This document shows positions 5,412-9,870 of a stretch of DNA of 37,726 nt, piece after piece. The stretch is from a virus (taxonomy: Duplodnaviria; Heunggongvirae; Uroviricota; Caudoviricetes). The stretch's first letter is position 1. Each line of letters begins with the position of its first letter. The translations under genes and the position numbers were made by a program. The notes beneath the pieces were generated by a model that did no database searches, had not been told where the DNA came from, and saw only the letters and a program-made list of their open reading frames with translations. Where the stretch lies: IMG/VR virus record IMGVR_UViG_2711768052_000002; one strand, written 5' to 3'.

Positions 5412-5534
5412 TCAGGGTGCCATAACTCGTAGTTCTCAGCAATTCTCACTGGACGACAATAGACGTAAAAAAGCCCGCAGAGCTTGTGCTGTGTGGGCTT
5501 AGTAGACTTCATTGAACTTCAAACAACTAAAAAG

Positions 5535-5567
5535 TGGTGGAGCTGGCGGGAGTTGAACCCGAGTCCG
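5535..5567 (-). other. ssrA: 3'-terminal fragment of ssrA (tmRNA) - putative att core repeat
   Basis: Minus-strand reading CGGACTCGGGTTCAACTCCCGCCAGCTCCACCA matches the recalled 3' acceptor/T-arm end of E. coli tmRNA (one mismatch) including CCA; flanking sequence on the 5' side does not continue as tmRNA, so only the terminal ~33 nt are present. Confidence 0.75.
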
Positions 5568-5578
5568 AATTTTTTTAA

Positions 5579-6397
5579 CTATCTGTTTTTATTAAAATCA
5601 TGCTCATCCATAAAATCTGCGTAGCTTTTGCGTATCCTTTCTAGGACAACCTGTGTCCAACACTGTTTGGATGTGAAAAGAATATCTATGTCTAAAATTA
5701 GATCTAAGCCATTTCCGTAAAAAGATACGCTCTTAAATTCTGTTGTGAAAATTTTCTTTCTTTTCTTATTGTTTACATCTCTATATTCAAGGATAAGGTC
5801 CGGCCCTATAAACGATGAGATGGAGGTGGTTACAAGATAATTACCAATTAATTCTGGCACCAATGGGGGAAATGGTATGGTTGTTTTCTCTTTGTCTTTA
5901 ATATTCGGAGTTATAAATTCTATCAAAGTTCCTTTTTTTTGAAAGCTATTATGTTTTTGCGGACCTCTACCAAAAATATCAACATTCAAGAAGTTATTGT
6001 TGTCTTTGATTGTAAAAAACTCTTCATTTTGCAAAAATATCTCATGTGATTTTTGTGTGTTGTTATTATCTATTTTGAATTTGTTTATCTTAATATATTT
6101 CTCATACTCTTCAGACCAGTAGTGATTTATTTTTATAGCTGGGCCAAGACCTATGTTGAGAAGCTCTATATTCAAAGTGGTTGGTGATATTTCTATGTTC
6201 TTAAATAATTTCAAGTTATCTCTGTGCATCCATGTGAATTTTGTATTCTTAGGTAAAATTTGAGGTTTGTTTGAAATTATTCTTTGCTGCCATGTTTGGT
6301 ACATTGCAAAAAATGCAATTATGACACTTATTATGGCTATGAAGTCGGTAGTGGTAATTGAGTAACCTAACATTTTTATTAAATCTGTGTTATTCAT
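5579..6397 (-). CDS. hypothetical membrane-anchored protein (single N-terminal TM helix), AT-rich cargo gene
   Basis: 272-aa ORF; N-terminal hydrophobic helix FIAIISVIIAFFAMY then a Lys/Asn-rich soluble domain; located between the ssrA att fragment and the prophage integrase. Confidence 0.5.
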   Translation of the reverse strand: MNNTDLIKMLGYSITTTDFIAIISVIIAFFAMYQTWQQRIISNKPQILPKNTKFTWMHRDNLKLFKNIEISPTTLNIELLNIGLGPAIKINHYWSEEYEKYIKINKFKIDNNNTQKSHEIFLQNEEFFTIKDNNNFLNVDIFGRGPQKHNSFQKKGTLIEFITPNIKDKEKTTIPFPPLVPELIGNYLVTTSISSFIGPDLILEYRDVNNKKRKKIFTTEFKSVSFYGNGLDLILDIDILFTSKQCWTQVVLERIRKSYADFMDEHDFNKNR

Positions 6398-6436: not shown

Positions 6437-7612
6437 TTAATTAGTACAATTTATCAAATGATTGTGTGTGCTATTGTTATCATAATCTTTAAGATAACGG
6501 CCGTAATGCCTAAATAGCATTTCTGGTCCTTTATGCCCCATTTGAGCGGCTAACCAAAACAAATTAACACCTTGACTAATGTGTTTTGTAGCAAATGTAT
6601 GTCTAGTTTGATAAGGATTACGGTAACGGACTCCGGCTTTACGTAAAGTTGGCACCCATGCCTTCTTTCTTATGGCGTCTGCGCTGGCCCAAGGTTTATT
6701 GGTTTTTGGATCTTCAAAGACAGTCGCGTCCTTCATGAAAGTGAACGGTTTCTGATTTATTAGTGCAGACATTGCTTCATCTGTCAGTTCAACTTTTCGA
6801 GTACCTGCTTTTGTTTTGGTACCTTTGATTACACCAACAACACTGGCGCTCTGGACGTGGGCAGTCCTCCCTACAAAGTCAATATCACGCCATCTAAGGG
6901 CACATAATTCAGAACTACGCAGACCTGTATTTATAGCGAACCGGAACAGATTCTCCCATTGTTTGTTTCCGGCTGCTGCTAGTAATGCATCAACTTCTGC
7001 TGGTGATAGCGGATCAACCACGTAGCGGCTTTCTGCTTCTGACTTATCACTTTGGTAGCGCGAAGCAGTTACCAACGATACGGGGTTAATTTGAAGTACC
7101 CCATCGGTTACGGCTTCATCAAGTGCTGACCGCAGGAAAGATAACTGGTTGCGAATTGTTTTTAAGGTCGTTTTCTGGCTTTGAATCCACGCTTTCAGGA
7201 TTGCTGGTGTTAATTCACTTGCAGAGCAAATGTGGAGTGAGGCTAACGCACTACGGCATTTTTTATAACCACCAATCGTAGAGGGTGAAAGTTTTCTCGT
7301 TTCGCAGATTTCAAGGTATTCGTCCAAGTACATTTTTACCGTTTTGCCTGCAGCAGCATTACCAAAAATTTTCAAACGAGCAGAACGGGGAAAATATTCC
7401 GCATAAATGAATGTTCCCCTTTCGATCTTATTATGAATTTCACCGAGTGTGCGCTCGGCGTATTTTATGTTCTTTGGTGTTACTTCCAGATTGGAAAGAG
7501 GCTCACGACATTTAACTCCTTTGTAGGTGAAAGTTATATTGATCGTTTCGCCCTGGCGGTGTTTCCTGATTGTTACGCCGCGCGGTAGTTTGAGCAGTTT
7601 TGTCTGGCCCAT
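6437..7612 (-). CDS. int: tyrosine-type integrase, lambda family
   Basis: 391 aa; catalytic-domain motifs (GLRSSELCALRWRDID, HKGPEMLFRHYGRYL with catalytic Tyr context, RHTFATKHI); 5' end overlaps the upstream xis-like ORF as in lambda. Confidence 0.9.
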   Translation of the reverse strand: MGQTKLLKLPRGVTIRKHRQGETINITFTYKGVKCREPLSNLEVTPKNIKYAERTLGEIHNKIERGTFIYAEYFPRSARLKIFGNAAAGKTVKMYLDEYLEICETRKLSPSTIGGYKKCRSALASLHICSASELTPAILKAWIQSQKTTLKTIRNQLSFLRSALDEAVTDGVLQINPVSLVTASRYQSDKSEAESRYVVDPLSPAEVDALLAAAGNKQWENLFRFAINTGLRSSELCALRWRDIDFVGRTAHVQSASVVGVIKGTKTKAGTRKVELTDEAMSALINQKPFTFMKDATVFEDPKTNKPWASADAIRKKAWVPTLRKAGVRYRNPYQTRHTFATKHISQGVNLFWLAAQMGHKGPEMLFRHYGRYLKDYDNNSTHNHLINCTN

Positions 7613-7791
7613 TTTGCAACCTCACTAAGATCAATCCACCTCTCCTTAACGCCTTCAACCTTTAAAACCTGAACACCTTCACGCCAAACACCGCGCTGTA
7701 CACGTTTGTTTATTGCTTCAGGAGTTTCGCCAGTTTCTTTGCAATAAGTTGAGATTGGAACACAATCGAGGTTCAGCATATGTTTCTCCAC
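7573..7791 (-). CDS. xis: excisionase (Xis-like) / AlpA-type DNA-binding protein
   Basis: 72-aa basic protein directly upstream of and overlapping int; winged-helix-like segment ETPEAINKRVQRGVWREGVQ resembles the lambda Xis pattern. Confidence 0.6.
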   Translation of the reverse strand: MEKHMLNLDCVPISTYCKETGETPEAINKRVQRGVWREGVQVLKVEGVKERWIDLSEVAKWARQNCSNYRAA

Positions 7792-8348
7792 TTAGCCCGC
7801 TGCACACGGGCAGTAATATCAAATTTCAGTGCATCTTGTCGGAATAAACCTCTGCCAGATAGCAGAAACATATTTTGCCTGAGGGCGGGCATCAGCCAGA
7901 GCACCTCTGCAGGGGCGGTTAGTTTCTCCACAAAACAGAGAAGAACACCTGCGGTAGTCACTGCCGGATGGATTGGGTTATGAGCCCATCGTCCGGTGAT
8001 GCTCTTCTCTGTTTTGTAAAAATGATGGTACCAGCCGGAAGCAAGGGTACAAGCTGGTACCGCCAAGACTACACACAGCATAAAGTTGTGGTGCCGGGTG
8101 CCTCCCGGTGCCTGGCGAAGGTTGCACACCAGGCGGGTGGGTATCCACAGAAGGTCGACTGTCAGCCTCAACCTTAACCCGCGTGCGCTGAGCCGCATTC
8201 ACCACAACGCTAAGGATTCTCTCTGGTTGAAAATACTTAGCTGTTATGTGCCTGCTTTTAGCCACATCAGGCGAGGTGGACCTAGTTATTCCCCAACAAC
8301 AAGGATTCGGTTAATCTGGTTATCCCCAACAACGCAAAAGGAAAAGAA

Positions 8349-8783
8349 ATGTCCGGTAATATCTATACGCTGTACAAATCCCACTGTGAAAATGTTGGAA
8401 AGTATCGGGGCATTGAAATCAGTGGGGTAGTGTCATCAGTCGAAATAAGCAAAGTTGAATCAAGGGCAACATTACTTACTCTTTTGGACCTTGTCTTACA
8501 TGAGCACCGGAAGAAATTCGGCACTCCCTATAATCAGTTGAATGGGAAAAAGGCTCTGGTTCACCTTATTCTGATGAAGCATCACTGGATGCCAAAACAG
8601 ATTAATGAGATGAAATTTGATGAACTTCTTCTTTCAATTCAGGATGAACTCACACTTGATAAAATAAGCGTAACCGCCCAGAAATTTTTAGATTATCGAG
8701 ACTGGAGATCACAAATTCATCACTTTGATGATTTTGACGAAAATGAATGGGATCCTAATTTGTCTGCACAATATCTAAAGTAA
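8349..8783 (+). CDS. hypothetical protein (AT-rich, early-left region)
   Basis: 144-aa ORF starting 8 nt after a GGAAAAG purine-rich stretch; no recognisable motif. Confidence 0.45.
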   Translation: MSGNIYTLYKSHCENVGKYRGIEISGVVSSVEISKVESRATLLTLLDLVLHEHRKKFGTPYNQLNGKKALVHLILMKHHWMPKQINEMKFDELLLSIQDELTLDKISVTAQKFLDYRDWRSQIHHFDDFDENEWDPNLSAQYLK

Positions 8784-8976
8784 CATCCTGTGATAAAACC
8801 GTGATTTCCTGATCCAGTTTTTTTAAGGAGTCTATTGTTTCCTGTCGATAAGACAGCACTTCACGAAGCTGGTTTATAGCTGCCAGCTTCTTTGTCATCC
8901 ACTCATAAATTTCCTCATCTGTGTAGCCAGGCGCGACGATTTTGGGTTCTGTTTTGTGCATTTCACATCTCCTCAA
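8755..8976 (-). CDS. hypothetical small protein
   Basis: 73-aa ORF, convergent with 8349..8783, amphipathic/coiled-coil-like (LREVLSYRQETIDSLKKLDQEI); weak support. Confidence 0.3.
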   Translation of the reverse strand: MRRCEMHKTEPKIVAPGYTDEEIYEWMTKKLAAINQLREVLSYRQETIDSLKKLDQEITVLSQDVTLDIVQTN

Positions 8977-9044: not shown

Positions 9045-9195
9045 TTGCTAACGAATCATCCTGGACTTCATATGCCCCAGGCGGCTACTTCGTGGGCGTC
9101 CTGCCTGTTCGTTGTTTCGCTTGGGTACATTATGTATCTCAAAGGTACATTGTCAAGTATAAAAAAACCTGCCGAAGCAGGTTCATAAACATTGA

Positions 9196-9870
9196 TTAGG
9201 CTTTGATTTTGTATCTTCTTGGTTTTCCTGAGAAAATCACTGTACCAATTATAGAGCAATTACCGTTGATCTTAATGTAAGGCTCAGGCCAGTTTGGGTT
9301 TAACGCTTTGAGATAACGCTGTGTCCCATCTTCTATCAACCTTTTGAAGGTGGTTTCGCCTGTATCGTGCATCAATGCAATAACGTCGTCACCGTGGCAG
9401 GCAGGTACTTCAGGATCGACAAAAATCATGTCTCCCGGGCGGTACTCATCAATCATTGAATCACCTATCACCCGCAAGATATAAGTCATTTCCCCACAGG
9501 GTACAGGGCAGGGATACGTTTCTGCTGTGCTCAAATCAACCTCAGAATATCCAACTTCTTTCCATGCTCCGGCCTGTACCCATGATATGACAGGGACTAA
9601 TGTGATTTGTTTATTAGTGATTGAAACATCAGGTTTTTTTGTGATGTTCGTTGTCTGGTGTTCTTGATCGAGCCATCCGACAGGCAGGTCGAAACATTTT
9701 TCGATGTGTCGTGCCATGCTGTCACCGATATTTTTAGTAGCACCATCTCCCATAAACCTGCTGGTCTGGGTTGGCTCGCGATCAATCATAGTGGCAAAGG
9801 AAGAATTCCCGCCAACACCATCTCTCAGTTTTCTGGCGTTAGACCGCCGGATGTCATGGATTGTTTTCAT
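9196..9870 (-). CDS. cI: CI-like phage repressor (N-terminal HTH, C-terminal LexA/S24 peptidase autocleavage domain)
   Basis: C-terminal S24 signature VIGDSM with downstream Lys-containing segment; N-terminal DNA-binding region; divergent from a cro-like gene across an operator-bearing intergenic region. Confidence 0.85.
   Translation of the reverse strand: MKTIHDIRRSNARKLRDGVGGNSSFATMIDREPTQTSRFMGDGATKNIGDSMARHIEKCFDLPVGWLDQEHQTTNITKKPDVSITNKQITLVPVISWVQAGAWKEVGYSEVDLSTAETYPCPVPCGEMTYILRVIGDSMIDEYRPGDMIFVDPEVPACHGDDVIALMHDTGETTFKRLIEDGTQRYLKALNPNWPEPYIKINGNCSIIGTVIFSGKPRRYKIKA

Follow-up and report, generated by a model that had tools for sequence, protein, structure and literature searches.

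The window analysed here, 37,726 nucleotides (nt) of viral DNA (IMG/VR record IMGVR_UViG_2711768052_000002), is a lambdoid prophage, and its positions 7792-8348, adjacent to the xis gene, had been flagged in an earlier note as a GC-rich stretch with several stable stem-loops and no convincing open reading frame (ORF). In our analysis, the GC-rich centre of this stretch is with high probability a structured non-coding RNA homologous to STnc100, encoded on the minus strand by a gene of ~220 nt reaching from ~8238 to 8016. The evidence supports well that this RNA belongs to a divergent early-left-operon subfamily of the prophage small RNA (sRNA) superfamily STnc100 (Rfam RF02076)/EcOnc27/sRNA103/PasD, and also that it consists of three modules, namely a compact 124-nt core closed by helix P1, an 18-nt unpaired linker and an intrinsic terminator (Table 1).

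The properties for which the stretch had been picked out were borne out. Measured over 300-nt intervals, the G+C content is 0.53-0.55 over 7850-8300 (0.55 at 7850-8149 and 0.53 at 8000-8299), as compared to 0.37-0.47 in the flanks (e.g., 0.39 at 7250-7549 and 0.37 at 8450-8749). The only ORFs of the gap overlap each other, encode 141 amino acids (aa; 7773..8198, -), 95 aa (7978..8265, -), 114 aa (8086..8430, +), 69 aa and 67 aa, and match no Pfam or PHROG family. Both inverted-repeat motifs quoted at the time were located: GGTACCAGC-N17-GCTGGTACC lies at 8027-8035 / 8053-8061, and GCCTCCCGGTGCC at 8100-8112 (+) is the plus-strand image of hairpin H5. Two further inverted repeats had gone unmentioned, i.e., 8085-8093 / 8200-8208 (9/9), which is helix P1, and 7930-7954 / 7993-8017 (25 nt, 84% complementary, with a perfect 15-nt outer part). 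The described location between xis and early-left genes holds for the left side; the right side is formed by ORF144 (+) and ORF73 (-), the usual early-left genes being deleted.

Table 1. Features of the prophage region around the RNA gene, ordered by position; parts of the RNA core follow the row of the core.
Feature	Position	Strand	Remarks
Integrase gene	6437..7612	-	
xis	7573..7791	-	Left neighbour of the flagged gap; start probably ATG at 7779
Flagged gap	7792-8348		
Intergenic before xis	7792..7818	-	Small hairpin GCCCG-UGUGCAG-CGGGC (7811-7795)
DnaQ-like 3'-5' exonuclease remnant	7819..7902	-	Last 27 codons ALADARPQAKYVSAIWQRFIPTRCTEI and stop (7821-7819)
Truncated leader end (GGAGAAACUAACCGCCCCU...) and deletion junction	7903..7929	-	Junction ~7903-7910; exonuclease homology from 7902
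Leader hairpin	7930..8017	-	88 nt, irregular; outer arms a perfect 15-bp repeat ACAAAACAGAGAAGA / UCUUCUCUGUUUUGU
Intrinsic terminator	8016..8066	-	Stem GGUACCAGC (8061-8053) with GCUGGUACC (8035-8027)
Linker UUUAUGCUGUGUGUAGUC	8067..8084	-	18 nt, between P1 and terminator; single-stranded in minimum-free-energy and centroid folds
Pseudoknotted core	8085..8208	-	P1, H1, P2, pseudoknot, H4, H5
P1	8208-8200 with 8093-8085	-	
Junction AAU	8199-8197	-	
H1	8196-8181	-	Only 3-4 pairs here; sequence unlike canonical
P2	8180-8178 with 8137-8135	-	
Pseudoknot	8175-8169 with 8124-8118	-	AAGGUUG with CAACCUU in H4 loop
H4	8133-8127 with 8117-8111	-	
H5, invariant hairpin	8108-8094	-	CCGGG-AGGCA-CCCGG
5' leader of the RNA	8209..8238	-	8238 is the start of the Rfam model match
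Upstream motif CCACCTCGCCTGATGTGGCTAAAAGCAGGCACATAAC	8243..8279	-	Conserved, 37 nt; includes hairpin GCCUG-N13-CAGGC
Divergent intergenic region upstream of ORF144	8280..8348		Outside the RNA; SfV/e14-type homology begins only at 8279
ORF144	8349..8783	+	phrog_5286, function unknown; right neighbour of the gap
ORF73	8755..8976	-	phrog_1744 of unknown function; acidic
PL candidate TTGACA-16-CATAAT	9156..9129	-	Near-consensus, directed leftward (sigma-70 scan)
Terminator after repressor gene	9184-9165	-	
LexA-like (Peptidase_S24) repressor gene	9196..9870	-	Rightward early genes beyond

Homology and structure of the RNA

A structured RNA was among the options of the earlier note and proved right for the main part of the stretch, ~8016-8238 (-), where a match to STnc100, covarying helices, a pseudoknot and an intrinsic terminator coincide. 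The Rfam comparison aligned the full STnc100 model (positions 1-206) to 8238..8015 of the minus strand with 38.3 bits, at an expect value (E) of 1.7e-6 in a 1.2-kb scan and 5.3e-5 in the scan of the whole window, and within the match the GGTACCAGC hairpin forms the terminator stem, with AUCAUUUUUAC after it. No other family, be it a ribozyme, a riboswitch or another class, was found by Rfam at E < 1 within 7500-8700. The statement that the stretch resembles neither tRNA nor tmRNA is confirmed by ARAGORN and the Rfam tRNA/tmRNA models, and ARAGORN called no tRNA or tmRNA in the whole window or in six related loci.

The 21-mer ACCGGGAGGCACCCGGCACCA occurs once in the window (8109..8089, -; 0 expected by chance) and in at least 120 IMG/VR contigs, all of which have GGUGAAU, H1, a variable middle part, H4, H5 and P1 in common; the exact 21-mer together with GGUGAAU (8203..8197) is common to 89 unique core sequences from the fetched loci. 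A second copy was not found in the window, neither by a model search with the filters off nor with the 21-mer at up to three mismatches. The common plan of the superfamily comprises a P1 of (A/G)UGGUG with CACCA(U/C), lengthened by covarying pairs, an AAU junction and, inward of it, H1 with GCG always in its loop, a short P2, a variable central domain, H4, and H5 abutting the 3' strand of P1. The RNA of the window follows this plan throughout, i.e., with UGGUG...CACCA and the GAAU junction, the invariant hairpin directly next to the P1 3' strand, GCG in the H1 loop, P2, H4, a pseudoknot formed by the H4 loop with the post-P2 strand, and a short unpaired linker followed by an intrinsic terminator. 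With regard to H1, ~90 copies of the superfamily are canonical (CCCCC...GGGG), 27 are of the GCGGC type found here and 8 of a CCUUUC type. A covariance model (R1) built from seven early-left copies retrieved 89 matches in 68 sources, canonical copies among them at 33-65 bits. A much more diverged version occupies the same early-left position in Stx2a and mEp460 phages (L004 2846-3000 and L008 2851-2995); it keeps GUUGUGGUGAAU...ACCACAAC, differs in H5 and scores 23.5 and 30.6 bits with R1. This version was not used as evidence, the L004 copy folding no better than its shuffles (z = +0.39).

The minus-strand RNA 8213..8012 folds at -82.4 kcal/mol with z = -2.59 (0 of 200 shuffles as stable), as compared to z = -1.63 for the plus-strand fold, and R1 scores 167.3 bits on the minus and 20.9 bits on the plus strand of the window; by these models, the strand is clearly the minus one. 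Covariation across homologues, another check proposed in the earlier note, is strong. A MAFFT alignment of the superfamily was too poor in H4 for counting pairs, and a model-based alignment was therefore used, in which, fitted as it is to the model's own structure, 95.8% of the cells form a standard pair (76.8% when shuffled, 39.0-52.1% in slid controls). Compensatory changes affect 21 of the 27 nested pairs, against a shuffled mean of 15.3 and 6-11 in slid controls, and the covariation score is 0.443, against 0.125 for shuffled alignments (0 of 500 reach 0.443) and at most 0.083 for slid controls. The pseudoknot is supported by complementarity at the sequence level: in nearly every copy, the strand that follows the 5' strand of P2 on its 3' side is complementary to the H4 loop, with ~30 distinct sequence pairs at a fixed position, e.g., AAGGCUGG/UCAGCCUU in phiES15, AGACUGACAAA/UUUGUCAGUCU in L019 and CCAGUC/GACUGG in many canonical copies. 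The mean duplex amounts to 5.75 bp with a copy's own loop, versus 4.1 bp with swapped and 3.98 bp with shuffled loops.

Outside the core, conservation takes different forms. In the linker, copies from E. coli, Salmonella (ST64B, sal3) and Cronobacter (phiES15) retain the stretch UGCUGUGUG(U/A)AGUCUU despite wholly different terminators, with mEp460_4F5 carrying a different allele, and by its modelled single-strandedness the linker is a candidate seed or Hfq-contact region. At the terminator position, the homologues keep a hairpin and a U-run of unrelated sequence, such as CGGCGUCC...GACGCCG followed by UUUUU in ST64B or GCCCGCUUUCGGGCGGGC followed by UUUUUUU in phiES15. The stem in the window is extended by 8065-8063 with 8025-8023 and precedes a U-run at 8022-8018; a simple terminator scan did not call it, its loop having 17 nt. 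The 37-nt motif upstream of the RNA is present in almost all members of the early-left subfamily, and phiES15 and sal3 have 25-115 nt of unrelated sequence between this motif and the core. A sigma-70 scan found no consensus promoter in the motif, which may be a promoter region or another signal. In the K-12 e14 copy (L001 3990-4301), two otherwise invariant positions of H5 are altered, the loop having lost 1 nt and the stem carrying A in place of G.

Three candidate readings of smaller elements were discarded. A sigma-54 interpretation of TGGCTAAAAGCAGGCA failed by eye, with GG-N10-GC in the window and N11 in the SfV-type variant. Inspection by eye also led to the rejection of a riboswitch-like switch between P1/H5 and the terminator, the terminator stems differing wholly while P1/H5 are invariant and no complementary segment being apparent. 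Finally, a T-arm-like CTGGTTCGATTCCAG (shorter form GGTTCGATTCC) occurs in a module inserted between the 37-nt motif and the core in L004 (~2740-2800) and L005, and ARAGORN calls no tRNA there.

Distribution, genomic position and annotation

The early-left copies lie downstream of a cI-like repressor gene, on the early-left strand and in an otherwise unannotated gap in 7/7 annotated records (SfV, ST64B, 118970_sal3, phiES15, mEp460_4F5, Kati and K-12 e14). The subfamily lies 0.45-1 kb downstream of PL, the leftward early promoter. The canonical copies belong to the late region, where they lie between Q and the holin gene, and the usual context of the superfamily, i.e., the late region between Q/the late promoter or stx and the lysis genes, does not apply to the copy in the window. 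Published work puts STnc100 at 75 nt downstream of stx2B, in partial overlap with EcOnc27, and describes dyads of Hfq-binding sRNAs in the interval from the late promoter to the lysis genes (PMC12370729, PMC12711010, PMC7873438). At L071 4375-5465, the interval from a Q-like gene to the holin gene is taken up by four tandem STnc100-type units with ~260-nt spacing, each with an AT-rich promoter-like sequence, one or two terminators and a different linker, and these canonical units look like independent genes. Further arrays of three to four STnc100-type units were seen at L017 2320-3356, L026 368-994 and L034 1721-2340, with ~260-nt spacing in L026 and L034. In L011, a canonical copy (131 bits) comes after three tRNA genes.

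Promoter prediction, also suggested in the earlier note, was productive for the operon and not for the RNA itself: it returned the leftward site at 9156..9129, which is likely PL, and no sigma-70 site directly upstream of the RNA. Phage SfV has the same pair of a terminator and a PL-type promoter. ORF144 and ORF73 are convergent and overlap by 29 nt (8755-8783), and by this arrangement leftward transcription from PL crosses ORF144 in antisense before it reaches the RNA. A terminator-like hairpin on the plus strand lies within ORF73 (8865-8890). Just upstream of ORF144, the exact direct repeats TCCCCAACAAC are found at 8290-8300 and 8323-8333 (+), 33 nt apart; they were seen again in the related loci L012, L052 and L093 and may be regulator sites.

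A query with the 557 nt had matches in 58 phage records and in 2785 of the 5426 complete E. coli genomes, and a 174-nt query (leader, core and linker) in 1878 of these genomes, K-12 included; of the 1882 records matched by it, 1289 show 99% identity or more. In E. coli the element is annotated as 'hypothetical protein' or, in K-12 e14, as YmfH. The K-12 ymfH frame starts at a GUG in P1, 3 nt inside the helix, and spans the core, the terminator and the downstream leader hairpin. Owing to 1-nt and 10-nt indels its length varies: 19 codons in ST64B and sal3, 27 in phiES15, 75 in the window, Kati and SfV, 100 in mEp460_4F5, and 103 in K-12, where the C-terminal half is read in a different frame. 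Judged by its sequence, the ymfH reading frame is unconserved, and a protein-coding core is thus rejected. About one third of the complete E. coli genomes consequently carry the element under a protein label, and its recognition as an RNA corrects this annotation. The K-12 'ymfH' locus was reported to be strongly induced by azidothymidine, together with ymfJ, xisE and intE and in dependence on LexA cleavage (PMC11228462), and such an induction by DNA damage fits transcription from a repressor-controlled leftward promoter.

Deletion beside xis and the prophage setting

The part of the gap next to xis is of a different nature. Stx2, mEp460 and cdtI phages possess the module 7903-8066, consisting of the terminator and the 88-nt hairpin, without having the core, and it lies directly upstream of an orf32-type gene in SfV, mEp460, Stx2 phages and others. 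Because it always precedes this gene, we read the hairpin, which shows one compensatory change (G-C to A-U) in ST64B, as the 5' leader of the SfV orf32-type early-left gene. This gene is missing here, and the leader is joined to a stretch encoding the C-terminus of a DnaQ-like exonuclease. The latter was identified by tblastn (E 6e-12) and by 78% nucleotide identity to genes annotated as '3'-5' exonuclease', which in 614 E. coli genomes immediately precede the xis/PrtN gene. It follows that one deletion took orf32 through most of the exonuclease gene, which also explains the anatomy of this prophage, with its early-left genes lost in a single event and the RNA gene left abutting xis-int. The suspicion of a degraded gene voiced in the earlier note was thereby substantiated for 7819-7902 only; for the GC-rich core it is wrong, the K-12 ymfH ORF in this part being no conserved reading frame.

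Between the remnant and xis, a Shine-Dalgarno sequence GGAG for xis is located at 7789-7786, just outside the intergenic segment 7792..7818 and ahead of the probable ATG at 7779. A perfect 10-nt inverted repeat (7778-7787 / 7864-7873) makes AUAUGUUUCU within the exonuclease remnant complementary to AGAAACAUAU in the minus-strand RNA, the latter covering the spacer behind the Shine-Dalgarno sequence as far as the second base of the probable start codon. By this predicted pairing, translation of xis could be occluded.

A recombination site, the third option of the earlier note, found no support as a site-specific target in the stretch, the att signature lying beyond int. There, on the minus strand, partial Rfam matches were obtained to IsrM (5467-5544; 53 bits, E 5.7e-12) and tmRNA (5535-5609; 22 bits, E 3.8e-5), and the prophage is probably integrated at the ssrA (tmRNA) attachment site. 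The stretch does hold the deletion junction at ~7903-7910 and mosaic homology boundaries at ~8066 and 8279. Between the att side and int, a 272-aa ORF (5579-6397, -) in a very AT-rich block (G+C 0.28-0.31) looks like foreign cargo. The Rfam scan found no C4 or isrK antisense-RNA genes in the window; in related phages, C4 and/or isrK exceed the Rfam thresholds at L002 409-597, L004 269-457, L005 48-124 (isrK only) and L006 226-414, on the rightward side near antirepressor genes.

Mode of action and comparison with known systems

For the statement as a whole, namely that a structured STnc100-type RNA works here as an Hfq-associated, trans-acting sRNA, we see the balance as reasonably favourable; for Hfq-dependent action in trans taken by itself, argued by analogy, the chances appear slightly better than even. 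Relatives of the RNA are Hfq-bound: Hfq cross-linking and analysis of cDNA (Hfq-CRAC) and Northern blot detected EcOnc27/sRNA103, which overlaps with the STnc100 prediction downstream of stx2B (PMC7873438, PMC12711010), PasD1 and PasD2 show Hfq-dependent stability and targets in RNA-interaction mapping through ligation and sequencing (RIL-seq; PMC8550237), and PasD and STnc100 were reported to be structural homologues (bioRxiv 10.64898/2026.05.13.724894). Since in addition the linker is conserved across E. coli, Salmonella and Cronobacter while the terminators vary, a trans-acting sRNA with the linker as seed is the reading we favour. Accordingly worded as a model, leftward transcription of the RNA would start at the PL-type promoter under repressor control, at a weak promoter belonging to the RNA gene, or at both of them, and would end at the RNA's own terminator, yielding a stable sRNA. 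Its U-tail and the U-rich linker would bind Hfq, the linker would pair with target RNAs in trans, and the pseudoknotted core would act as a scaffold resistant to nucleases or offer a protein partner a platform. As the locus follows PL, the RNA would be expected to rise sharply upon SOS induction of the prophage.

Several observations weigh against this picture. The STnc100 score of 38.3 bits remains below the gathering threshold of 47 bits, and at gathering thresholds Rfam yields no match anywhere in the window. The early-left copies score only 30.5-43.4 bits with STnc100, versus 131.4 bits for a canonical copy, and the K-12 copy was not detected by the model at E < 0.01; it is for these low scores and the missed K-12 copy that annotation pipelines do not call the early-left copies as RNA. 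No consensus sigma-70 promoter was found by the scan upstream of the RNA on the minus strand, which leaves independent transcription unproven, and promoter scans of ST64B and SfV were equally uninformative on a promoter of its own. The U-run of the terminator counts five U only, a search for linker targets within the window matched only the linker's own locus, and Hfq binding as well as the transcript of the early-left subfamily are argued from relatives. Moreover, the invariant GGUGAAU, the GCG of the H1 loop, the whole of H5 and the pseudoknot exceed what a simple base-pairing sRNA needs, which hints at a different or additional function.

The strongest rival, though an unlikely one in our view, is a cis-acting leader of the early-left operon, i.e., a put-like antiterminator, an attenuator with its own terminator or a processing/stability element, which would set the read-through from PL into the downstream genes orf32...xis-int and, in this prophage, into xis-int directly. 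The element is invariably located close to the promoter, in an untranslated part of a long phage operon, early-left after PL or, in the canonical case, between Q and lysis genes (PMC7873438), a terminator follows directly between PL and xis-int, and no N-like protein is evident. In K-12 e14, xisE and intE lie beyond the same terminator and are still strongly induced by DNA damage (PMC11228462); the missing promoter would fit a leader as well, and the invariant loop and junction nucleotides with the pseudoknot resemble an RNA that binds a macromolecule. However, unlike HK022 with its putL and putR, the window has a single copy and none in the PR or late operons, and R1 detects nothing similar in the immunity region of HK022, its best score there being 7.1 bits. 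Because the terminators vary freely while P1/H5 are invariant, no conserved alternative antiterminator pairing is visible. The canonical units form tandem arrays with their own terminators and promoter-like sequence, and the relatives are discrete Hfq-bound sRNAs (PMC7873438, PMC8550237).

Distinctly less probable is a decoy or trigger RNA for a host or defence protein, in which the core would be the active part and the Hfq and seed features secondary. Overexpression of K-12 'ymfH' was reported among the prophage-derived triggers of the retron-Sen2 toxin RcaT (bioRxiv 10.1101/2020.06.22.160242), a ymfH clone would express this RNA, and with the frame unconserved an effect of the RNA is conceivable; the near-identity of the 174-nt query in most matching records points in the same direction. 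On the other side stand that this was one screen hit, not followed up in that paper, from a clone that could make a peptide, that the K-12 copy is altered at the two H5 positions described above, and that no partner protein is known. Nevertheless, an RNA-based reinterpretation of this reported retron trigger can be offered. More generally, the core, which has nearly invariant nucleotides in its junction and loops and invariant ones in P1-H5 and is common to early-left and late copies of well over a hundred phage contigs, might itself be the functional RNA domain instead of a mere scaffold for a seed, which we regard as rather doubtful. If true, it could have RNA polymerase or a protein of the host or of a defence system as its binding partner, e.g., as an RNA-only read-through element for phages without N, or be the real agent of retron-Sen2 triggering by 'ymfH', which would then be an RNA gene with a defence- or transcription-related activity.

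A YmfH-like protein gene over the GC-rich core, intact or decayed, is very improbable: RefSeq labels ('protein YmfH' in K-12, 'hypothetical protein' in other E. coli) and the 95- and 141-aa minus-strand ORFs speak for it, whereas the frame is broken or shifted among close homologues, family matches are lacking in Pfam and PHROG, substitutions track base-pairing and not codon positions, and conservation begins and ends at helix boundaries. A site acting at the DNA level (attP, another recombinase target, an origin or an operator cluster) is the least credible of all, for although the stretch adjoins xis/int and contains several inverted repeats and homology breakpoints (~7903, 8066 and 8279), the att-side signature lies elsewhere, the helices include G-U pairs and are strand-asymmetric (167 vs 21 bits, z -2.59 vs -1.63), compensatory changes keep pairing and not sequence, and the same element is found far from int in other phages.

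Among known systems, the HK022 putL/putR RNAs resemble the favoured sRNA in being structured RNA in the PL-operon leader of a lambdoid phage without evident N, upstream of terminators. They comprise ~70 nt with two stems and form a PL/PR pair (PMC9378689), as opposed to the single 124-nt, five-helix pseudoknotted core of the window. R1 gave no hit at 27.5-33.5 kb or 20-30 kb of HK022, regions that were scanned whole, with the put sequences not pinpointed; with its single copy and no model hit in HK022, the element does not qualify as put-type. DicF of the Qin prophage is an Hfq-dependent sRNA that ends at an intrinsic terminator and lies within the dicB operon, the repressor-controlled equivalent of the early-left operon in this defective lambdoid prophage. 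The likeness comprises the sRNA within an early-left-type operon and the intrinsic terminator; sequence and structure are unrelated, DicF being short (~53 nt) and devoid of a structured core, and Rfam found no DicF match in the window at E <= 0.1.

Also comparable are PasD1 and PasD2 of enteropathogenic E. coli (EPEC) E2348/69, which, compared by their published description, share the 3' terminator and are of Hfq-dependent stability (bioRxiv 10.64898/2026.05.13.724894; PMC8550237). By analogy, the RNA of the window would be expected to belong to the same functional class. PasD differs in its neighbours, Q and LpxR in the late region, and its seeds are reported to differ from those of STnc100.

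The closest system is STnc100 itself, with which the RNA shares the P1-closed multi-helix core, the GGUGAAU junction, H1 with its GCG loop, P2 and H4, an identical H5 and P1 3' strand (ACCGGGAGGCACCCGGCACCA), the linker, the intrinsic terminator and the prophage-borne location. The two differ in H1 (UGCG...CGCG in the window, CCCCC...GGGG(G) in the canonical form), in the central domain, the pseudoknot sequence and that of the linker, and in position, which is early-left after the repressor gene here and between Q/stx and the lysis genes in the canonical case (PMC12370729, PMC7873438). The locus is thus mostly of an ordinary kind, a prophage sRNA gene with deletion debris beside it; new are a variant below the Rfam threshold, its operon context, the mis-annotation as a protein and a pseudoknotted core of strict conservation. 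It extends the STnc100/EcOnc27/PasD family below the Rfam threshold and to a second context, the SOS-inducible early-left operon, and adds to its structure a covariation-supported pseudoknot, which bears on whether these RNAs are simple Hfq-dependent sRNAs or something more.

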